From a virus (lineage: Duplodnaviria > Heunggongvirae > Uroviricota > Caudoviricetes), in the IMG/VR virus record IMGVR_UViG_2802429237_000003, positions 1-40,233 of that record: a DNA stretch of 40,233 bases; one strand, given 5' to 3'. Positions 1,307-29,247 of this stretch are shown here, piece after piece. Every line of letters starts with the position of its first letter. The first letter of the stretch is position 1. Under the pieces are notes generated by a model, which saw nothing but the letters and a program-made list of their open reading frames with translations, had not been told where the DNA came from and did no database searches. Position numbers and translations under genes: made by a program.

Positions 1307-3763
1307 TTAAAAATCAACCGGATTCGGGATCAGTTTTTGCCAGATTGCTGAAACGTATTTTGCCTGGTGACGGGCGTCATCAAGTGCATTATGGCGCTCA
1401 CCTTCGAATGGAATATCCATTCTGGCATCAAAGTCTATGGCTTTTCCTAACTCAACGATTGTGCGTACATCTCGATCGTTGTAGTAACGCCACGGGCAGG
1501 GGATCCCCTGCCGTTCGTATGAACGGCGCAAAATCGTGTTGTCGAAGTTGGCTCCATTTCCCCAGACCTGAACAAAAAATTCACCGGAGTTTTCGTCGAT
1601 AAATTCCCGCAATTGTAACAGTGCATCATCTAACGGGATTTCATCGGTCATAATGGCAGATTGCGCTTCGCGTGATTGCTTAAGCCACCATTTAATGGTG
1701 TCCCGATCAATGACTCCGCCAGCAGTTTCCAGATCGATAGTCTTACTAAATTCCGGTCCCATATCTCCGGTTTGCGGATCGAAAAAAATTGCACCTATTG
1801 AGATGATCGGGGCATCAGGATTTTTTCCCATGGTTTCAAGGTCGATCATTAGATGGTCACACGTCCTGCTGGTGGATGTGATTTCGTGATGACCGTTCAC
1901 CTTAATTGAGTGATCTGCCGCCTCGCCAGTTTCATTATCGCTGGCGTGGTCCTGAGCGCTGCCAGCATTCTCCTTGTGTGGATGTTCAGCGCCTTCCATT
2001 TCCTCCGGATCATTTTCCTGAACTTCAACCTGATTCTCTTCATCGAATGTTTCCTGGTATGTTGCGTCGCCCATCACCGCGCCACAATCAGGGCAGTTGC
2101 CGTCACCGCTCTGACCGCAGGCGGTGCAGACTTTTTCCACTTCCTGTTGCGCCACTGGTTCAGGCTGTTTCGTTTCTGGCTCGTTTTGTAACGCATTTGG
2201 GCTGTTTTGTTCCGCTTTCTGGTCGTTCTGTTCCGATTCTTGCTGGTTCTGGTTTACAGAATCGCGGGTTTCAATTCCCTTCACCCATTTCGGATCATTC
2301 GGGTCGCTAATCCCTGCAACAAATTCTCCGCGAGAGGCAGCAAGCAGTTCAGCGGCGTCAGGCTGGTTGATATTGGCTGCCTGCATAATTTTGTTTACTT
2401 CGTCAGCGGTAACTTTTACCTGATTAACCGGATCTATCTGTGCCTGAGTATCCAGCGATTGCGTGTCCTGGCGATGTTCAGTTGTATCCGGCTCCATTGC
2501 TTCAGTCGTTGCCTGTTCATCTGCCATTGCGTCAGACGGTTGTGATTTTTCCTCATTATTTTTTTCTTCTTCTGTTTCGCGTTCAGCAGCCAGTTCGCGG
2601 TTAACTTCTTCCAGGATATCTTTTTCCGGTGTATGTCGTGCAGCAGTGAGAGTTTCCTCGGTAGGGTTCTCGTGATCAGTCTCCGTTAAGTGGGCGTTGA
2701 TATACTCCTGAAGGCGTCCCGGGTAGAGATAAAGTTCAGGGTGAGCACTTCGGATAAGTGCAAAAATAGCGGCACGGGAATAATCCAGAACACCCGGGGT
2801 TGCGCGAAGTGCTGCGGACCATTCTTTGAACGGACTTTCTTTCTTCCGGACGATTTCTTTTGCGCGACGATAAACGCTGCCCGGGATTTCATAAATATTA
2901 AAATCCATCGGAAGTGTGGCCGCTGCAATCTCCACATCCAGCGTATCGAAGGTGTGTACTAAATTCGGATTGCGATCGGTTTTGTTCCCTCCACCGGCAT
3001 TAGCACCGGAAGCCGTGCGGGTGATGCGTGAAACACGATTTCCTTTCATCCACTCTTTTGTCAGCAGACCGCGATCGGTGTAGTCAGCGCCCAGGTATGC
3101 TTCGAAAAAAGCAGTCATCAGTCCCAGGTCTGAATTACCAGGATTAGGGAAAACTTTGTCCGTGTCACGAACCAGTTTGTGGAGATCGCGAATTTCAAGC
3201 GGTTCGAGTTGCGCTGCTTTATTTGAGATGGCCAGCGCGGTAACGGCGGGAAGTTTTTCATCCTGTGCGTTATGTAATGCGCGCAGTTCGCCCCGCGAAA
3301 CGTGTGTGATCGGTTTTTCGCTGCCGTGCTGCGCCAGCCATCGAACAGGCAGAATCTGACCTGAAACCGGCAGGAGCATGTTCTCCTCAATCTCAGTCAT
3401 GTCTTCGCCGTTGACGTTGGTATTGTCAGTGCTGGCTGGTTTGTCCTGAACAGAGGGCGAGGGCGCGATAAGTACCATTGTGATACCATCTTCCCCGCCT
3501 TTTTCGTATCGGTTGCAGAATTCGGTATCAAACACGCCTTCCGGAGGAAGGTCATTCACAACGGGTAAATGGACGCGAACAGGTTTTTTAAAATCCTCTT
3601 CGTCAAATCCGGCATCGTCCATTGCGACAACACCGCGTGATATTGCAACCGATAATTTTTTTGCTGTGCGCCAGTAAAAACCGCCTTTAATCCCAAGACG
3701 TTTTCTGACTTTGTCATTTTTGGCTTCGTAATATAGTGCAATTTCTTCTTTATCAGCGCTCAT
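1307..3763 (-). CDS. large putative exonuclease (818 aa): N-terminal domain of unknown function, acidic linker with CxxC..CxxC zinc ribbon, C-terminal DnaQ-like DEDDh 3'-5' exonuclease domain
   Basis: C-terminal region has DLETMG ... WGNGANFDNTIL ... HNALDDA motifs matching the Exo I/II/III motifs of DEDDh exonucleases; SD GAGG 8 nt upstream of ATG at 3763. Confidence 0.75.
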   Translation of the reverse strand: MSADKEEIALYYEAKNDKVRKRLGIKGGFYWRTAKKLSVAISRGVVAMDDAGFDEEDFKKPVRVHLPVVNDLPPEGVFDTEFCNRYEKGGEDGITMVLIAPSPSVQDKPASTDNTNVNGEDMTEIEENMLLPVSGQILPVRWLAQHGSEKPITHVSRGELRALHNAQDEKLPAVTALAISNKAAQLEPLEIRDLHKLVRDTDKVFPNPGNSDLGLMTAFFEAYLGADYTDRGLLTKEWMKGNRVSRITRTASGANAGGGNKTDRNPNLVHTFDTLDVEIAAATLPMDFNIYEIPGSVYRRAKEIVRKKESPFKEWSAALRATPGVLDYSRAAIFALIRSAHPELYLYPGRLQEYINAHLTETDHENPTEETLTAARHTPEKDILEEVNRELAAERETEEEKNNEEKSQPSDAMADEQATTEAMEPDTTEHRQDTQSLDTQAQIDPVNQVKVTADEVNKIMQAANINQPDAAELLAASRGEFVAGISDPNDPKWVKGIETRDSVNQNQQESEQNDQKAEQNSPNALQNEPETKQPEPVAQQEVEKVCTACGQSGDGNCPDCGAVMGDATYQETFDEENQVEVQENDPEEMEGAEHPHKENAGSAQDHASDNETGEAADHSIKVNGHHEITSTSRTCDHLMIDLETMGKNPDAPIISIGAIFFDPQTGDMGPEFSKTIDLETAGGVIDRDTIKWWLKQSREAQSAIMTDEIPLDDALLQLREFIDENSGEFFVQVWGNGANFDNTILRRSYERQGIPCPWRYYNDRDVRTIVELGKAIDFDARMDIPFEGERHNALDDARHQAKYVSAIWQKLIPNPVDF

Positions 3764-3853
3764 TGATAAACCTCATAACCATTTTTAGGGTGAACAAGTC
3801 CCTGCCATTGCTGGCATATAAAAATGAAACCGGATATTTATTACGGTGCTGGT

Positions 3854-4045
3854 TTAAAGCCCTGCCGGGACTTCGTTATTATCCATGCGAATAACTTTAT
3901 CGACCGGATAACAGTTACCTGGAATTTTCTGTTCCGCTGCGGCAGCCATGCATTCTTTCATTGAACCATATATACCAGTAACCACATCAACCGGTTCGCC
4001 TGTATTAAGAAAAACAGTCAGGGTGAGAGCAACAGCAGTATTCAT
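3854..4045 (-). CDS. ydfD: YdfD-like small membrane protein (63 aa)
   Basis: Internal ATG of the track ORF 3854..4099 gives 63 aa starting MNTAVALTLTVFL (hydrophobic N-terminus); the ATG overlaps the dicB stop (ATGA); position and size match ydfD of the E. coli Qin dicB operon as I recall it. Confidence 0.55.
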   Translation of the reverse strand: MNTAVALTLTVFLNTGEPVDVVTGIYGSMKECMAAAAEQKIPGNCYPVDKVIRMDNNEVPAGL

Positions 4046-4230
4046 TGCCAGTCTCCTTTTGGCATCAGACGTAAACGAGCCAGCATTGAAACAATGCATA
4101 TTTGATTTAATAGCTCCCGTTCGTGTTTTCTCTTATTAATCGCATCTTCAGTAAATACAGGGTTACTGATTCTGACACCAATTTCAAAACAACCTTCAGA
4201 CGTATTGACGTTTGGTAATAACGTTTCCAT
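4042..4230 (-). CDS. dicB: cell division inhibitor DicB homologue (62 aa)
   Basis: Internal ATG of ORF 4042..4326 gives 62 aa METLLPNVNTSEGCFEIGV...CIVSMLARLRLMPKGDWQ, near-identical in my recollection to E. coli DicB; SD GAGGA 8 nt upstream; preceded on the same strand by a DicF-like terminator hairpin. Confidence 0.78.
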   Translation of the reverse strand: METLLPNVNTSEGCFEIGVRISNPVFTEDAINKRKHERELLNQICIVSMLARLRLMPKGDWQ

Positions 4231-4423
4231 TATCGCGTCCTCAACAATGAATTTTGTGATACGGTGCCTGGTGCCTCCAGGTGACGTTAACCAGTTAACA
4301 ATTAACGCCGGATACAGAGAACCCACCCATAAGAACCAATACGGAAGTCAACTGGCCTTTTTAACTGTTCCGCGTGCGCTGAGCCGCATTCACCGCATCA
4401 CAAAATTCACTTTAAAAAGGGCG

Positions 4424-4476
4424 GGTATCACAAGGGAACAAAGAACGGATACCCGCCAAAAGGTAATCAACATGGG
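4424..4476 (-). ncRNA. dicF: DicF-like small RNA (approximate ends)
   Basis: Minus strand reads ...TTTTGGCGGGTATCCGTTCTTTGTTCCCTTGTGATACCCGCCCTTTTT followed by AAAGTGAATTTTGTGATG..GGTGAATGCGGCT.AGCGCACGCGG, matching the 3' terminator and downstream leader of E. coli dicF-dicB as I recall them; 10-bp stem GGCGGGTATC/GATACCCGCC plus T-run; immediately upstream of dicB. Confidence 0.5.
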
Positions 4477-4820
4477 TTGTTGCAGCGGGGGTGTCACTCA
4501 GGCGTATGGTCAACCTGACAACCCGGTGTTATCTCGAGGAAAGGATAGCCTCGCCATACTTACCGCCGCGCCATTTCGCGGAGTGCTACAACCGGAAGCG
4601 CACGGTCGAATTAAATTTAACGACACCGTACAGTGAGACGAACTTCGCCGTGCGCTTTCGTGTTGTGTGCCTGCTTTTAACCACGTCAGGCGAGGTGGTT
4701 CCTGTTATTCCCCAACAACAAGAAATTTGTATAATCCGGATATCCCCAACAACGAGAAGAGTATGTAACGTGATAGTTGAGTTCTCAGCAGCAATGTAGG
4801 CAATCAAAGAAACTGCGGTA

Positions 4821-5225
4821 ATGGCAAAGGGTATTCTGAATGCCAAAACTCAAACTGAGATAAATTCCGCTGTCAGCGATATGCTTTCAAAACTTACGTC
4901 TGTTCAGTTTGAATGCGTATCGCTCATTGAGATGGTGCGCTCTTATCAGGAAGAAGCCGCATCTCTCAAAGCAAAAATTGCAGAGATAGAAGACTTTCAG
5001 CAACAGGCGGAAGGTTACAAACTTAACAAGCTTGATTCTGGAACTCTTGTGTATTCCAAGAAGCAATTTATAGGCGATACTGAGATAACAGTGCATCTTT
5101 GCCCACAATGTTTTGGAAAAAAGGTAATATCTGTACTGCAGCCAATGGAAATAATGCGCCTTGATGCTCATTTTCGTACTTTTTGCCCCGCCTGTAATAA
5201 TAAGTTCTGGATGAACTCAAGATAA
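4821..5225 (+). CDS. hypothetical protein with N-terminal coiled-coil-like region and C-terminal CPQC...CPAC zinc ribbon (134 aa); convergent insert in the leftward early operon
   Basis: Clean 134-aa ORF on the strand opposite to all neighbours; visibly AT-rich; protein-like composition while the antisense ORF 4887..5171 is low-complexity; weak SD. Confidence 0.45.
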   Translation: MAKGILNAKTQTEINSAVSDMLSKLTSVQFECVSLIEMVRSYQEEAASLKAKIAEIEDFQQQAEGYKLNKLDSGTLVYSKKQFIGDTEITVHLCPQCFGKKVISVLQPMEIMRLDAHFRTFCPACNNKFWMNSR

Positions 5226-5360
5226 TTAACTGTTTAAATAAGTTGGGACTATCCAGATTTTTAAAGAACGTGCCGGATGCTCACCCGTGTCCGGCGCACG
5301 CACTCCACCTGCCTCGTGGAGAACTCCTTAATTATCAACCTTAGTCTCGTTGGTTAACTA

Positions 5361-5579
5361 TTAACGCGGGTATGAAATCATTCTGGCAATGCTTAATGCC
5401 GCTGCTTTTTCCAGATTGGTGATATCCTGCTCCAGAGCGGACAGATTTTCAGCTTGCTTAGCCCTGGCTTCATTGGCCCATTTCAGGTCCTGCGCTGCCT
5501 TAATTTTCTGGCGCATCCACTCATAAAGTTCATCATCGGTATAGTCTGGCGCGATGATGACGGGTTCTCGTTTCTGCAT
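5361..5579 (-). CDS. ydfC: YdfC-like small protein (72 aa)
   Basis: 72-aa ORF with SD GAGG upstream; follows the ydfB-like ORF on the same strand; order and sizes (51/42/72 aa) match ydfA-ydfB-ydfC of Qin. Confidence 0.55.
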   Translation of the reverse strand: MQKREPVIIAPDYTDDELYEWMRQKIKAAQDLKWANEARAKQAENLSALEQDITNLEKAAALSIARMISYPR

Positions 5580-5608
5580 ACTGATTCCTCGCGGTGCTGT
5601 TTCGCTTA

Positions 5609-5737
5609 TCAGCCGTTAGATTTTGCCGAACTGGAAAGCGCCTGTTTAAACTCACTGAAGCTGAGAGCTTCTTCGCCTTCGGCAAGGCCTTCGAAGTATT
5701 CTTCGTAAGCCTTTTCCATGATTGCGTCGAAATCCAT
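5609..5737 (-). CDS. ydfB: YdfB-like small acidic protein (42 aa; below ORF-track cutoff)
   Basis: Hand-translated minus-strand ORF MDFDAIMEKAYEEYFEGLAEGEEALSFSEFKQALSSSAKSNG; its ATG lies 2 nt after the upstream stop (tight coupling); the two overlapping track ORFs 5533..5742(-) and 5594..5791(+) look non-protein-like. Confidence 0.5.
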   Translation of the reverse strand: MDFDAIMEKAYEEYFEGLAEGEEALSFSEFKQALSSSAKSNG

Positions 5738-5738
5738 A

Positions 5739-5894
5739 TCACTCACCTGAGTTTCTTTTCAGCCAGCGACGCGCGCCAGCTTCGGTTTTAAACGTTTTGC
5801 TTTTGGTATACGTCATCGCGGTGAACGTGCCGTCCTGGTTTGGAAACACGCCGTACACCAGAGATTCGTTGTTACCAAGATCGATAGTATCCAT
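5739..5894 (-). CDS. ydfA: YdfA-like small protein (51 aa)
   Basis: Internal ATG of ORF 5739..5972 with SD GAGGT gives 51 aa MDTIDLGNNESLVYGVFPNQDGTFTAMTYTKSKTFKTEAGARRWLKRNSGE, matching the size and, as I recall, the sequence of E. coli YdfA. Confidence 0.6.
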   Translation of the reverse strand: MDTIDLGNNESLVYGVFPNQDGTFTAMTYTKSKTFKTEAGARRWLKRNSGE

Positions 5895-6100
5895 GCTGAC
5901 CTCATTTCCCCTTAACGCCGGGGTAGCGGAACAAAAACCTGCTGCATAGTTAAAGTTGAACCCTGCCGTCATGTTCTTACGCCTCGGGCTGGCTACTTAA
6001 CCCCTGACCACTGCCTGGTAACTCGAAGTATTGCCCTGCATTTTGTGGGGTGGGGTGAGGGAATGAATTAAGTTTAGAAAAATGAACTTTTCAGGTCAAT

Positions 6101-6116
6101 GTTTTTTTATCAAAAC
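6101..6116 (-). promoter_or_regulatory. candidate operator (O_L-like) 16-mer GTTTTGATAAAAAAAC, read on minus strand
   Basis: Third copy of the GTTTTGAT-N4-AAAC motif found twice in the cI-cro intergenic region; lies between the repressor gene and the ydfA-like operon, next to a TTGACC -35-like hexamer. Confidence 0.35.
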
Positions 6117-6183
6117 ATTTTGAGCAGGCAGCTGTTAAGCCATCACCACGATGGCATACAGTTAATCAAATAGATGAGGTTGG

Positions 6184-6822
6184 TTAAATATCTTGTTGAA
6201 TTTTAAAGCATACACCCAATATGCAAGATAGATCATCCAGCATAATTGAAGGGTAGCGAGGATTCGTGGGGACTAAAAGAATATCCGGCCCTTCTATCTC
6301 CAGTTTACGAATGACAGGTGTTGTGGTCCCTTTGGGTAAGGCAAGGACAATATTTCCTGGTTGTGCGGTTCGATCGGGATCAACAAAAACTGTTGATCCA
6401 TTTGGGATGGAAACTCCCCCACCAGATGTTGACATACTGTCACTCTCTAGAACAACTGCAAAGGTATTGGCCGGGATTTCTCCGACAAGCTGCACACAAG
6501 AGGTTATTGAGGAATTTTTCATATAATCACTCCAGCTTGCTGCCTGCTGAAGTGATAGTAGCGGAACCGTTTTTATCGGCGGTAAAGATAGATCAAGCGA
6601 ATCACCTGTATTTAACTCTCCTCCATTAAGAAGCCAATTTTCGTTTACTTTCAATATCTTTGCCAGTGAACTTATGTAACGCGAGGACGGCGCTCCTCCA
6701 CCGTTCATCCATTGACTTACGGAGCCTTTTGATGCGCCAGTGGCATTGACAAGGTCTTTGCCTTTCAGGTTTAGCGCATGCATACGTTGGGTTATGCGTT
6801 CAGATATTGTTTGCTTGCTCAT
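6184..6822 (-). CDS. CI-like prophage repressor: N-terminal HTH, C-terminal S24 LexA-like self-cleaving peptidase domain (212 aa)
   Basis: N-terminal HTH signature (GKDLVNATGASKGSVSQWMNG) and C-terminal S24-like region; divergent from the Cro-like gene with a ~90-bp operator-containing intergenic region. Confidence 0.85.
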   Translation of the reverse strand: MSKQTISERITQRMHALNLKGKDLVNATGASKGSVSQWMNGGGAPSSRYISSLAKILKVNENWLLNGGELNTGDSLDLSLPPIKTVPLLSLQQAASWSDYMKNSSITSCVQLVGEIPANTFAVVLESDSMSTSGGGVSIPNGSTVFVDPDRTAQPGNIVLALPKGTTTPVIRKLEIEGPDILLVPTNPRYPSIMLDDLSCILGVCFKIQQDI

Positions 6823-17534: not shown

Positions 17535-17820
17535 ACAGTAGACGAAATCTGGTTGTATTAGGCACTGACACATTGATATGTGGGGCGTTTTTCCTGATTC
17601 CTTACCGCGTCCTGTTCTGTAATATGTGATACAGGTTACAGTCCAGTGCCATTTTTTTACAATAATGGCATGGTGCATTGTCGGTGGAGATTTTGTATTT
17701 CCTGGCAGGGGCTGATGATGCACCATCCCGGTGTTGTAAATAACATCACAGAGGTGTTCCTCAGCGCGAGGGTGGTTTAAAGAGTCGGTTTAGCGGGAAA
17801 CCACAGTATCTGCTAACGGG

Positions 17821-17918
17821 TCAGGTATTTCGGGAGGCACCCGACACCTCAGTTTTACAACAATAAAAACAGCTTATATTTTGCATTGACCAACCGCCAC
17901 ACCAGGCGGTTTTTTTTT
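17821..17918 (+). repeat. repeated noncoding module, copy 2 (same 24-nt core, then intrinsic terminator)
   Basis: Core at 17828-17851; CCGCC(ACACCA)GGCGG + T9 at 17894-17918; two further terminator-like hairpins follow at ~17941-17962 and ~18041-18068. Confidence 0.7.
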
Positions 17919-18086
17919 ATTCACAATCCTGTTTCTTATGGCTCGCTACGGCGAGCTTTTTCATACCTGCGTCACGACTGGCGCTCATCAAATAACACCA
18001 GATAAAAGGCATTTGTGGGTGCCTTTGATGTGGTGTTGTTTTTTATGGGCCGCTGGTGGCCCTTTTTTATTTACAGGAGAAAAAGT

Positions 18087-18479
18087 ATGTCTGAACCCTT
18101 ATCCGGTTCCGGCACGGCTGCGGCGCTCGGCGGGGCGACGGTATTCGGGCTGTTTACCGGAACGGATTTCGGGATTGTGTTTGGTGCGTTCGCCGGGGCG
18201 TTATTTGTGGCAACGATGCCGCAGCAGCTTTCAGCCTGGCGTGTGGCGGCGCATTTTCTGGTGTCGTTCATTGTTGGCGTGCTGGGAGCGCGTGTGCTGT
18301 CAGCCTGGATAGCGGCAAAAACAGGTTATGACGGTACATCGGCAGATGCGCTGTGCGCGGTGCTTGTCGCGGTAGTGTCGGTGAAGATTCTGTCGTTCAT
18401 CCACCAGCAGGATATCGCATCACTGGTGTCCGGTCTGTTCTCCCGCCTGCGGGGCGGAGGAGGTGGCAATGTTAAGTAA
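18087..18479 (+). CDS. putative holin / lysis membrane protein (131 aa)
   Basis: Internal ATG of ORF 18015..18479 with AGGAG SD; multiple hydrophobic Gly/Ala-rich helices; first gene of the lysis cassette. Confidence 0.55.
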   Translation: MSEPLSGSGTAAALGGATVFGLFTGTDFGIVFGAFAGALFVATMPQQLSAWRVAAHFLVSFIVGVLGARVLSAWIAAKTGYDGTSADALCAVLVAVVSVKILSFIHQQDIASLVSGLFSRLRGGGGGNVK

Positions 18480-18747
18480 CCTTCCCGGCTTGCTGAATGT
18501 GGCGTTATGCACGGTTATTGTGCTGACGCTCTTTTTTTATCGTCGCCGTGATTCCAGACATAAACCGCTGATGTCATGGCTGGCCTGGCTGCTGATGCTG
18601 CTTTATGCCTTTGCACCTCTCAGCTATCTGTGCGGTCGCCCGTTAGCGGCGAACTGGCTGGCGGTGGGGCTTAATCTGCTGTTCTGCGTGTTGGTGATTC
18701 GCGCACGCGGGAACGTTTCAAAAATCTTTGTATTACGAAGGCGCTGA
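18469..18747 (+). CDS. putative holin/antiholin-type membrane protein (92 aa)
   Basis: ATG with GGAGGAGG SD; three predicted TM helices and a basic C-terminus (VLRRR); overlaps the upstream stop. Confidence 0.55.
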   Translation: MLSNLPGLLNVALCTVIVLTLFFYRRRDSRHKPLMSWLAWLLMLLYAFAPLSYLCGRPLAANWLAVGLNLLFCVLVIRARGNVSKIFVLRRR

Positions 18748-18748
18748 T

Positions 18749-19294
18749 ATGAAGTCGAAAGATGAAATTTTTGACGAAGTTCTGGGAAAAGAGGGCGGTT
18801 ACGTCAATCACCCGGATGATAAAGGCGGACCGACAAAATGGGGTATTACGGAAAAAGTCGCCCGCGCTCACGGATATCAGGGCGATATGCGTGACCTGAC
18901 ACGCGAACAGGCGCTGGAAATCCTTGAGGCGGATTACTGGTTCGGACCACGCTTTGATCAGGTGGCCGCATTATCCTCTGATATTGCTGCAGAGTTGTGT
19001 GATACCGGTGTGAATATGGGGCCGTCCGTAGCATCGAAAATGCTCCAACGCTGGCTGAACGTTTTCAACCTGCAAGGCAAATTGTTCCCGGATATGGACG
19101 CAGACGGGCGTATCGGCCCCCGCACGATTAATGCACTACGGACTTATCTGCAAAAACGCGGCAAAGACGGCGAACTGGTGATGCTGAAGGCGCTGAATTG
19201 CACGCAGGGCGACCGCTATCTGGAGCTGGCAGAAAAACGCGAGGCCAACGAGTCGTTTGTCTACGGCTGGATGAAAGAGCGCGTAGCAGTTTAA
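18749..19294 (+). CDS. endolysin, glycoside hydrolase family 108-like with C-terminal peptidoglycan-binding domain (181 aa)
   Basis: N-terminal EGGYVNHPDDKGGPTKWGIT resembles the GH108 signature; C-terminal region resembles a PG-binding domain; follows the holins. Confidence 0.8.
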   Translation: MKSKDEIFDEVLGKEGGYVNHPDDKGGPTKWGITEKVARAHGYQGDMRDLTREQALEILEADYWFGPRFDQVAALSSDIAAELCDTGVNMGPSVASKMLQRWLNVFNLQGKLFPDMDADGRIGPRTINALRTYLQKRGKDGELVMLKALNCTQGDRYLELAEKREANESFVYGWMKERVAV

Positions 19295-19394
19295 AAACTG
19301 ACGCTGAAGTGCTGAACACCCTCAACTCACGCAGGCTCTTTTCTGGGGTTACGATGAGTGAAAGTAAGGGGTACAGCATCAAGCATCAGATAGC

Positions 19395-19430
19395 AAAAAC
19401 CCCGGCTGCTGGAACAGTCCGGGGTTTTTA
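19395..19430 (+). terminator. rho-independent terminator after the endolysin gene
   Basis: AAAACCCCGG...CCGGGGTTTTT hairpin with T-run. Confidence 0.6.
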
Positions 19431-19520
19431 GTTTTCACGTCAAAGAGGAAATTGTGAGTAGTGAGTACGGAGAAAATCCTCGTGGGAAAGTATAAAAGAT
19501 TCTTTTTGAGGTTGTCCATT

Positions 19521-19634
19521 ATGAAAGGTATTGAAGTGGAAACTCCCGCGAGCCTTGATTTGACAAGGGCTGCGGCCTTTGCAATTCGCCTTGTGGCGGT
19601 CGCTGTTCTGATTTGGGCTGTGCGTTGGTGGTGA
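19521..19634 (+). CDS. small hydrophobic peptide (37 aa; below ORF-track cutoff)
   Basis: Hand-translated MKGIEVETPASLDLTRAAAFAIRLVAVAVLIWAVRWW; stop is 1 nt before the start of the lipoprotein gene. Confidence 0.3.
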   Translation: MKGIEVETPASLDLTRAAAFAIRLVAVAVLIWAVRWW

Positions 19635-19635
19635 T

Positions 19636-19818
19636 ATGAGCCGAAAACACTGGACACACAGAATGCCGCGAGCGGCGGCAAAATGGGCACTGGTAGCGAT
19701 ACTGGTGCCTTTTTTATTGGTGGGGTGCGTCAGCCTGGATAAGGCGCGCCAGCTTTTCGATACAGCTTCTCAGGTCTGCGAAATTGTTGATAGTGTCCGG
19801 CAGTGTATGCAGAACTGA
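19636..19818 (+). CDS. small lipoprotein (60 aa precursor; lipobox LLVGC; ~29-aa Cys-containing mature part)
   Basis: Signal peptide with lipobox L-L-V-G-C; mature part not proline-rich, so not a typical Rz1 o-spanin. Confidence 0.5.
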   Translation: MSRKHWTHRMPRAAAKWALVAILVPFLLVGCVSLDKARQLFDTASQVCEIVDSVRQCMQN

Positions 19819-28902: not shown

Positions 28903-29247
28903 TTGATGGAATTTTTACTTATTTCAATAGTTTTGGGACTAATTCCAGCTATTATTGCGAAAAGCAAAGGTCGCTCATTTTTAGGATGGTGGGTATATGG
29001 TGCGATGATCTTTATTGTTGCTCTGGTTCATTCGCTAGTAATCCAAAGAGATGAGAAGGCACATGAACAACAAATGGTAAGCAATGGCATGAAGAAATGC
29101 CCTTACTGTGCGGAGTTGATCAAAGAAGAGGCTATTAAATGTAAGCATTGCGGTAGTGATTTAATTTGCAATGCAGATAGTTCCGTTTCACAAAAAACGG
29201 ATGATGAATATCTTCAGGAAGCAAGGCGTAAGGCCGGACTTCTTTAA
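28903..29247 (+). CDS. moron-encoded membrane protein: two TM helices resembling a superinfection-immunity domain, fused to a C-terminal CPYC...CKHCG zinc ribbon (114 aa)
   Basis: TM region [21 protein letters not shown] resembles Imm_superinfect-type small membrane proteins; AT-rich; own SD and terminator; inserted between GT and tape-measure genes. Confidence 0.6.

Follow-up and report, generated by a model that had tools for sequence, protein, structure and literature searches.

The lysis cassette of the lambdoid prophage in IMG/VR record IMGVR_UViG_2802429237_000003 (positions 1 to 40,233; hereafter the window) contains no Rz/Rz1-type spanin genes, and the slot behind its endolysin gene holds a gene for a 60-residue prolipoprotein. 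The signal peptide of this lipoprotein is related to that of known outer-membrane (OM) spanin subunits (o-spanins), the gene and canonical spanins exclude each other among the loci we compared, and no inner-membrane subunit (i-spanin) accompanies it. We put the chances at about even that the protein is an o-spanin-derived OM lysis factor that has no partner; its role in lysis, its acting alone and its mechanism are what we infer. Two components, or a single double-anchored chain, are thought to be necessary for spanin action, and some 13–15% of phages with Gram-negative hosts have no recognized means of opening the outer membrane.

One slot with mutually exclusive occupants

We gathered 86 loci encoding the lipoprotein, namely 80 viral contigs, 3 genomes and 3 annotated records. 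In all 86 the gene lies directly 3' of the endolysin gene, that is, in or next to the lysis cassette, and within 4 kb no spanin or other lipoprotein gene occurs near the cassette, except an opposite-strand bor just downstream. The commonest arrangement (51 of 86 loci) is holin, holin, M15 endopeptidase, lipoprotein. These cassettes carry neither the small peptide gene nor the terminator that precede the lipoprotein gene in the window, and their lipoprotein ATG lies 17 nucleotides (nt) after the endolysin stop. A terminator in place of spanins, as noted in the initial annotation, is not supported as a defining trait. The 17-nt spacing leaves no space for a promoter of the lipoprotein's own; together with the overlaps seen in other loci, it indicates a late gene that is co-transcribed with the endolysin.

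The lipoprotein gene keeps this position while its surroundings change. In cassettes related to that of the window, an M15 L-Ala-D-Glu endopeptidase replaces the GH108 endolysin and the neighbours are unchanged. In Lelliottia and two metagenomic relatives, whose proteins have diverged, the gene overlaps or abuts (11 nt) a GH108/PG_binding_3 endolysin gene, the peptide gene is missing, and the recovered holins are of another kind (Phage_holin_3_1-type). The contexts include M15 or GH108 endolysins, three holin types and differing tail modules: the same family is found in the lambda-J siphovirus-type prophage of the window and in the contractile-tailed phage phiP27 with its baseplate. In eight loci the order endolysin, peptide, lipoprotein, bor (minus strand) parallels that of lambda R, Rz/Rz1 and bor. 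The lipoprotein shares with lambda Rz1 a position after the endolysin, the nature of an OM lipoprotein with periplasmic Cys and, in some loci, the opposite-strand bor that follows. Unlike the lambda system, however, the window has no Rz, the lipoprotein gene is not embedded in another gene, and there is no sequence similarity; lambda Rz1 has 10 prolines in 40 mature residues, whereas the mature peptide of the window protein has none.

Canonical spanins occur behind the same holins. In Yersinia phage vB_YpM_41, homologous holin genes and an 83%-identical GH108 gene are followed by overlapping genes for an i-spanin and an o-spanin (phrog_1026 and phrog_1275). With the holin of this phage as query, we found another 80 loci that have the same holin pair. 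Every one of these has a canonical spanin pair after the endolysin, the pairs belonging to three i/o-spanin families, and none carries the mini-lipoprotein. Both Yersinia-type subunits are present in 73 loci, and one truncated contig has the i-spanin alone; a LysB/LysC-type pair was confirmed in L112 and L128, and a third, embedded type in L119, L148 and L156. Several spanin loci and lipoprotein loci have both flanks in common, with the holins on the 5' side and HNH, TerS and an L33 homologue on the 3' side. The lipoprotein is one of several mutually exclusive occupants of one slot in phiP27-type lysis cassettes, which have the order holin, holin, endolysin, slot.

Two prophages encoding LT-II enterotoxins, L090 (Rac-SA53; 3815-4955) and L091 (SerU-LTIIb; 5219-6368), have toxin genes directly after the same holin–holin–GH108 cassette, and neither a spanin nor a lipoprotein is annotated in their slot.

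This distribution bears on a role of the lipoprotein outside lysis, either in receptor masking or superinfection exclusion, like Llp and Cor, or in surface modification, like Bor. Small Cys-containing OM lipoproteins such as T5 Llp block receptors, and the junction between endolysin and terminase genes is a known moron site that receives toxin genes, Ant/KilA-N genes and the 37-residue peptide described below. However, the linkage to a receptor-binding module that would be expected of a Cor- or T5 Llp-type protein was not seen: the gene accompanies endolysins rather than tail or receptor-binding modules, and does so across lambda-J (siphovirus-type) and contractile (myovirus-type) tails. Most loci have the late, co-transcribed arrangement with no room for a promoter, the gene never co-occurs with spanins, as an independent moron should, and it has no Pfam or PADLOC match. 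Exclusion of the Cor/Llp kind, which had been put forward at first as an alternative, and non-lysis functions at the outer membrane in general are for these reasons quite improbable.

A signal peptide of the o-spanin type

The prolipoprotein consists of a 30-residue signal peptide and a mature part that contains Cys, as initially described, and comprises 30 residues rather than about 29 when the acylated Cys is counted; the 29 residues after this Cys are its sole periplasmic part. In the lipobox, LVGC, G30 and C31 are invariant. The residue at position +2 is Val, or Ala, Thr, Ser, Gly or Glu in relatives, and Asp is absent from this position. The protein has in this respect the features of an OM lipoprotein subunit, and the +2 residue predicts sorting to the outer membrane by Lol. 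The n-region is unusually long and conserved in sequence (MxRKHWTHRxPRxAAKW, with the core HWTHRxPR), and its residues are maintained through synonymous codon changes.

A homologous long, basic signal peptide is found in LysC-type o-spanins (P2 LysB/LysC-like; PF23793, phrog_456), which are likewise OM lipoproteins and, in cassettes that share the holin pair, occupy this slot. LysC-type proteins of this cassette kind start with MQxSRSHWSHREPRxISKW; their segment RSHWSHREPRxISKW corresponds to RKHWTHRMPRAAAKW in the window protein, and the n-region motif RxHWxHRxPRxxxKW is common to both. The two signal peptides match in BLASTP with an E value of 7e-8 and in hhalign with 96–97% probability (E 2e-10). 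In the reciprocal direction, the LysC-type protein matches phrog_7528, the family of the lipoprotein, with an E value of 1.3e-4. Judged from these alignments, the signal peptide of the lipoprotein descends from that of a LysC-type o-spanin.

Beyond the signal peptide the two proteins differ. The mature part of LysC-type o-spanins has about 65–77 residues, a Pro-rich linker and one conserved Cys, and their gene overlaps that of a 130-residue Rz-like i-spanin, whereas the window protein has a Pro-free mature part of 30 residues with two Cys, no linker and no i-spanin. The lipoprotein has no match to PF23793 (Pfam, E <= 1), and its PHROG is phrog_7528 rather than phrog_456. Although hhalign places the mature part on the LysC C-terminal domain (SLDLNV..L.QCN.DK), the E values of 0.3–0.75 are not significant, and we did not accept a homology of the two that is plausible by eye.

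The mature part (CVSLDKARQLFDTASQVCEIVDSVRQCMQN) contains no hydrophobic segment and hence no C-terminal transmembrane domain (TMD). It is amphipathic, with a net charge of -1 to +2, a hydrophobic moment above that of about 96% of shuffled sequences and a stripe of a/d heptad positions. The cysteines C48 and C57 are invariant across both subfamilies of the lipoprotein, spaced by 9–10 residues, and could form disulfides within or between molecules; the profiles of the subfamilies are on average about 50% identical, and the mature length is 29–32 residues in most members and 42 in one. In five comparisons the ratio of nonsynonymous to synonymous substitution rates (dN/dS) of the mature part was 0.04–0.27, estimates that are based on few substitutions, and by this measure the mature peptide is under purifying selection.

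Although a likeness to o-spanins can be demonstrated for the signal peptide only, it is unlikely that the protein is a functionless remnant of a LysC-type o-spanin and that its phages, effectively spanin-less, burst through shear or low concentrations of divalent cations. The dN/dS of the mature part lies well below 1, the Cys pair and the length are conserved across two subfamilies, and the gene has been kept beside differing endolysins and holins in six genera and reaches seven copies in a genome. What speaks for a remnant, besides the limited extent of the likeness, is that the LT-II prophages have neither a spanin nor a lipoprotein annotation and that spanins are dispensable in shaken laboratory cultures, as in the case of lambda Rz/Rz1.

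Homologues of the lipoprotein form 160 clusters in Enterobacterales and were found in Escherichia, Salmonella, Citrobacter, Cronobacter, Yersinia and Lelliottia. An exhaustive profile search of 1.84 billion representatives returned 23 proteins, all of them members of the same small family or fragments, and no link to a family of known function. Searches of Pfam (E <= 1 for the lipoprotein), NCBIfam and PADLOC yielded no family for the lipoprotein or the 37-residue peptide. A profile search of the PDB gave chance-level matches only, with none to Lpp, and scans of viral contigs with two distant homologues as queries gave no matches.

Some details of the mature peptide stand apart from these results. 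In the E. coli homologue P0008, a 10-residue tandem duplication (QLFDTASQVC twice) creates a third free Cys. The hydrophobic a/d positions 7, 10, 14, 17, 21, 24 and 28, counted from the acylated Cys (19726-19815), coincide with those in the N-terminal half of the E. coli lpp product (L183 422-658). This register, shared with Braun's lipoprotein, could be due to chance or hint at co-assembly with Lpp trimers. Mimicry of Lpp was rejected and is kept as a curiosity only, as a match in heptad register arises about once in seven times by chance and there is no match to the Lpp profile. A TonB-box-like motif after Cys48 was likewise rejected, its position not being conserved.

No i-spanin gene and a revised entry for phiP27

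A lipobox scan of all six frames of the window returned the 60-residue open reading frame (ORF) as the only credible lipoprotein. In tblastn searches of the window with five i-spanin and five o-spanin queries from five systems, only the lipoprotein's own signal peptide was matched. The absence of Rz/Rz1-type spanins, first noted for the lysis region, holds across the whole window. Neither the window nor the complete phiP27 genome yielded an i-spanin, and within 4 kb of the lipoprotein gene in the 86 loci no type II inner-membrane protein with a periplasmic coiled coil lies beside it, overlaps it or embeds it. The combination of a lipoprotein signal and a C-terminal TMD that characterizes unimolecular spanins of the T1 gp11 type is not present either, and with 29 residues past the acylated Cys the lipoprotein alone is too short to span the periplasm.

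The family is already known as the o-spanin of phiP27, for which a 'separated' two-component spanin has been listed (Kongari et al. 2018, PMC6139136). Its periplasmic residues add up to 62, which makes it the shortest of that survey, in which two-component pairs range from 62 to 300 residues. The o-spanin of this entry (NC_003356 20706-20861, 51 residues) is 90% identical to the window lipoprotein. Its true start lies nine codons upstream of the listed start, and the upstream residues are conserved with synonymous changes. The listed i-spanin (NC_003356 20348-20542, TTG start) is antisense to a 90-residue minus-strand gene (phrog_36812), a 46%-identical version of which is conserved in a second locus, L067. 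The published i-spanin ORF occurs in 2 of the 86 loci and has an in-frame stop in the second, L067. We reject it as an antisense artefact overlying a conserved gene, and the lower bound of 62 residues corresponds to this case with its spurious partner. Read in this way, the phiP27 system is an orphan o-spanin-like lipoprotein and not a two-component spanin.

Besides the i-spanin entry, we correct several annotations. The RefSeq coding sequence P27p32 (L32) is an out-of-frame call across the real lipoprotein gene of phiP27, and the gene is unannotated in phage pPE4 and in several genomes processed with the Prokaryotic Genome Annotation Pipeline (PGAP). Annotation faults lie at NC_003356 20348-20542, 20630-20785 and 20679-20861, and at L001 2777-3290.

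These results also weigh on the idea that the lipoprotein is the o-spanin of a true two-component spanin, in which its partner would be an envelope-spanning protein of the host, a phage protein of odd topology or one of the 'holins'. Such a spanin would suit the o-spanin-type signal peptide and the two invariant periplasmic Cys, as about 96% of spanins have periplasmic Cys, and i-spanins of other topologies, for example with a C-terminal TMD, would escape the criteria used in the survey (PMC6139136). However, no phage membrane protein is common to all contexts: the PF16931 and PF05449 holins are swapped for the Phage_holin_3_1-type in relatives and also stand alongside complete spanins, the 37-residue peptide is dispensable, and the published i-spanin ORF is the antisense ORF that is interrupted in L067. 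Since a 30-residue subunit would also leave nearly the entire periplasm to its partner, we consider a pair of this kind improbable.

The 37-residue peptide belongs to a mobile module

In the window, a gene for a 37-residue membrane peptide lies between the endolysin and lipoprotein genes. A GAGG Shine–Dalgarno sequence precedes its ATG at 19521, and its stop codon and the lipoprotein start codon form the junction TGATATG. The peptide has an acidic N-terminal tail, a C-terminal TMD and the end RWW. Its homologues form 38 clusters that differ by conservative V/I/L changes, and the family is very widespread (2,585 index blocks). A longer version of 57 residues with a GTG start, suggested by the 56 positions of the phrog_4493 profile, was rejected, as relatives have a 5-nt indel that disrupts this frame and the GAGG sequence stands before the ATG.

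The peptide and the lipoprotein occur independently of each other. The peptide or a variant of about 45% identity is present in 32 lipoprotein loci and missing from the other 54 (63% of 86), and it is absent from all distant relatives of the lipoprotein examined. In O157/Stx-type prophages, an 86%-identical copy lies between the R lysozyme gene and Rz with its embedded Rz1. DNA homology of these loci to the window begins at the terminator, covers the peptide gene and the TGATATGA junction, and ends three codons into the next gene. This shared unit of terminator and peptide gene points to mobile DNA that has entered at the endolysin/spanin junction, a place between endolysin and slot where Ant/KilA-N genes are inserted as well. 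The peptide is part of an independent mobile module (terminator, possible antisense promoter, peptide gene) that enters between the endolysin and spanin-slot genes of many lambdoid prophages, and it is neither a partner of the lipoprotein nor a spanin subunit.

The initial annotation had joined the two as a functional pair and proposed a non-canonical spanin equivalent. The second half of this proposal stands for the lipoprotein, which is the best candidate by virtue of its slot, its exclusivity with spanins and its o-spanin-type signal peptide; the pairing does not. A minimal two-component spanin with the peptide in the inner membrane and the lipoprotein in the outer membrane could be read from the adjacent genes with their stop-start junction and from the C-terminal TMD of the peptide, a topology deemed possible for i-spanins (PMC6139136). 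Yet the majority of lipoprotein loci do without the peptide, the same peptide and junction precede complete Rz/Rz1, and about 16 plus 29 periplasmic residues are too few to span the periplasm, which makes this model highly implausible.

Two further observations concern the peptide gene. In the O157/Stx-type E. coli prophages L093-L098 it lies at 3501-3614 and is always annotated as hypothetical. In L072, three small membrane genes occupy the stretch between the endolysin and the lipoprotein's end (3662-3996), in the order of a longer, 45%-identical version of the peptide, a 44-residue protein with an N-terminal TMD (phrog_4906) and the lipoprotein.

RNA elements of the region

The bidirectional terminator-like hairpin behind the endolysin gene (Table 1) marks the left end of the mobile module; O157-type and variant loci retain it along with the peptide gene. 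Facing it is a sigma-70-like site. In the 2.8-kb region scanned, no other promoter-like site was seen on the minus strand, and the homologous stretches of L094 and L072 have no promoter-like site besides this one; site and terminator are conserved together in three diverged versions. The arrangement (19393-19518) suggests a putative antisense RNA of about 85–90 nt. It resembles type I toxin–antitoxin loci and the P22 sar RNA in combining a gene for a small hydrophobic peptide, a terminator before it and an antisense promoter facing that terminator, but the predicted RNA would not cover the Shine–Dalgarno sequence of the peptide gene and there is no family match. Rfam gave no family at threshold for either RNA element of the region, with sar matching at 23 bits where the gathering score is 43. 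The same stretch contains a short upstream ORF that has a Shine–Dalgarno sequence of its own.

Of all terminator-like sites in the region, the second element, within the lipoprotein gene, is the best, with a local fold of -21.4 kcal/mol (z -2.15). Its synonymous sites are almost invariant among 49 unique sequences. The hairpin is kept in Lelliottia, where 8 of 11 neighbouring codons for identical residues differ synonymously, and in a member of the distant subfamily (protein family profile about 50% identical) whose flanks have diverged. No covariation was found for this hairpin, in which only single pair-compatible changes occur, and one homologue has a different h-region, indicating that the hairpin is not required for the protein. 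Possible roles are a Q-dependent terminator, protection of the mRNA 3' end or a recombination linker.

Organization of the prophage and its lysis region

The window comprises almost all of a lambdoid prophage, and in the region compared it does not differ from a prophage of E. coli AH19B041. It also encodes an integrase, a RecE-like exonuclease, an S24 repressor, Q, HK97-type head genes and a siphovirus-type tail with a lambda-J-type tail tip and Lom. All elements of the cassette as initially described, namely two holins, the GH108 endolysin, a terminator, a TMD-containing peptide and the lipoprotein, are present (Table 1). The two holin genes overlap by 11 nt. Each of the small ORFs is a real gene and not a chance ORF; PGAP annotates both in the identical AH19B041 prophage, and their PHROG families have no assigned function. 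An HNH endonuclease gene and then a P27-family terminase gene follow downstream.

Table 1. Coding and RNA features of the lysis region, in window coordinates
Position	Strand	Feature	Evidence
18087-18479	+	Holin-like membrane protein, 130 residues, ~4 TMDs; first gene of the cassette	PF16931 Phage_holin_8, E 1.7e-23; phrog_198 holin
18469-18747	+	Second holin, 92 residues, 3 TMDs, basic C-terminus	PF05449 Phage_holin_3_7, E 2.9e-21; phrog_217 holin
18749-19294	+	Endolysin, 181 residues; GH108 muramidase and PG_binding_3 domains	PF05838, E 1.7e-26; PF09374, E 1.2e-25
19397-19431	.	Bidirectional terminator-like hairpin with flanking A and T runs, AAAAACCCCGG...CCGGGGTTTTT	Sequence and scan
19489-19518	-	Sigma-70-like promoter-like site, TGGACA-18-TATACT	10/12 matches
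19521-19634	+	Gene for the 37-residue membrane peptide	phrog_4493, E 7e-16
19636-19818	+	Gene for the 60-residue prolipoprotein; lipobox LVGC, Cys31	phrog_7528, E 5e-38
19685-19721	+	Terminator-like hairpin with U-tract, GGGCACTGGTAGCGATACTGGTGCCT TTTTTATTGG	Signal-peptide codons 17-29 of the lipoprotein gene

Two tRNA genes and three terminator-like hairpins lie upstream of the lysis genes. The hairpins stand in tandem at 17723-18062, just 5' of the first holin gene, where a match to the small RNA family STnc100 stays below threshold (30 bits against a gathering score of 47). Possibly the stretch forms the leader of a late promoter and its hairpins are tR'-type terminators, an arrangement compatible with Q-dependent expression of the cassette.

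The first holin has been examined in a relative: deletion of a 130-residue PF16931 homologue in porcine Shiga toxin-producing E. coli abolished the fluoroquinolone-induced release of Stx2e (PMC12571312). The primers published in that study closely match the PF16931 holin region of the window, and its authors left open by which route Stx2e crosses the outer membrane.

Away from the lysis region, a gene at 28933-29247 (plus strand) is inserted with the tail chaperone genes on one side and the tape-measure gene on the other. Its 104-residue product has a single TMD and the zinc-ribbon motif CPYC...CKHC (phrog_8436, no assigned function).

Proposed action at the outer membrane and significance

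In the mechanism that we propose, the i-spanin gene would have been lost and a 30-residue mature lipopeptide retained in the slot. Q would carry RNA polymerase through the terminators and allow late expression of the lipoprotein, which Lol would sort to the outer membrane. After holin and endolysin have removed the wall, the lipopeptide would destabilize the outer membrane as a single component, either directly or, like the colicin lysis lipoproteins, via outer-membrane phospholipase A. Since 30 residues are too short to reach the inner membrane before the wall is removed, the protein would have to act at the outer membrane, after wall loss or with a host partner.

Its closest functional analogues would be the colicin lysis proteins and also the phiKT disruptin. 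Colicin lysis proteins are made as precursors of 47 residues and mature to OM lipoproteins of 28 residues; their genes come last in an SOS-induced operon and directly follow a terminator, and the proteins permeabilize the envelope via activation of phospholipase A (PMC2896534). According to references cited in that article, the colicin E2 lysis protein's signal peptide and the stable signal peptide of a bacteriocin release protein (BRP) are themselves lethal. Colicin lysis proteins and BRP resemble the window lipoprotein in size class (28 versus 30 mature residues) and in having an unusually conserved signal peptide. In contrast to it, they are plasmid-encoded and stand outside holin–endolysin cassettes, and neither sequence similarity nor a Pfam match connects them to it. 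They are also not known to have an additional Cys. Disruptin, gp28 of phiKT, is a single small protein that replaces spanins for OM disruption in a spanin-less coliphage (bioRxiv 10.1101/515445). It is a soluble cationic peptide of the antimicrobial type, whereas the window protein is lipid-anchored and roughly neutral (-1 to +2), and the two do not resemble each other in sequence.

Several points weigh against a partnerless OM lysis factor. The support for it comes from sequence analysis. Lambda Rz1 is inactive on its own, and an o-spanin derivative without a partner has, to our knowledge, no precedent. Thirty residues cannot bridge the periplasm, and in sequence the lipoprotein resembles none of colicin lysis proteins, Rz1, LysC mature domains, Cor and Llp. 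The selection estimates, as stated, draw on few substitutions, and AlphaFold2, run on the family alignment, predicted one long helix with a predicted local distance difference test (pLDDT) score of 66, too weak for use. The toxin genes of the LT-II prophages indicate that the slot can hold cargo unrelated to lysis, and the terminator-like hairpin within the lipoprotein gene could limit its expression.

If the lipoprotein is such a factor, it might, as a more tentative proposal, represent a third kind of phage OM lysis protein beside spanins and disruptin. It would be an o-spanin minus its inner-membrane partner and linker, breaching the outer membrane alone, either through phospholipase A activation or by acting on both membranes after wall loss.

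Among 5,426 complete E. coli genomes, 306 carry the lipoprotein gene, at a maximum of seven copies each; the gene is always annotated as 'hypothetical' or left unannotated, and is nowhere given a function. If the lipoprotein does not work alone, the Stx2e and Stx2k prophages and the LT-II relatives would lyse their hosts without an OM step, which bears on toxin exit, the question left open in PMC12571312. If it does work alone, it would be a minimal OM disruptor of interest as a small lytic tool. It would also be a natural, single-subunit escape from the two-component spanin paradigm, one that is common in E. coli, including prophages associated with Stx2e, Stx2k and enterotoxigenic E. coli.

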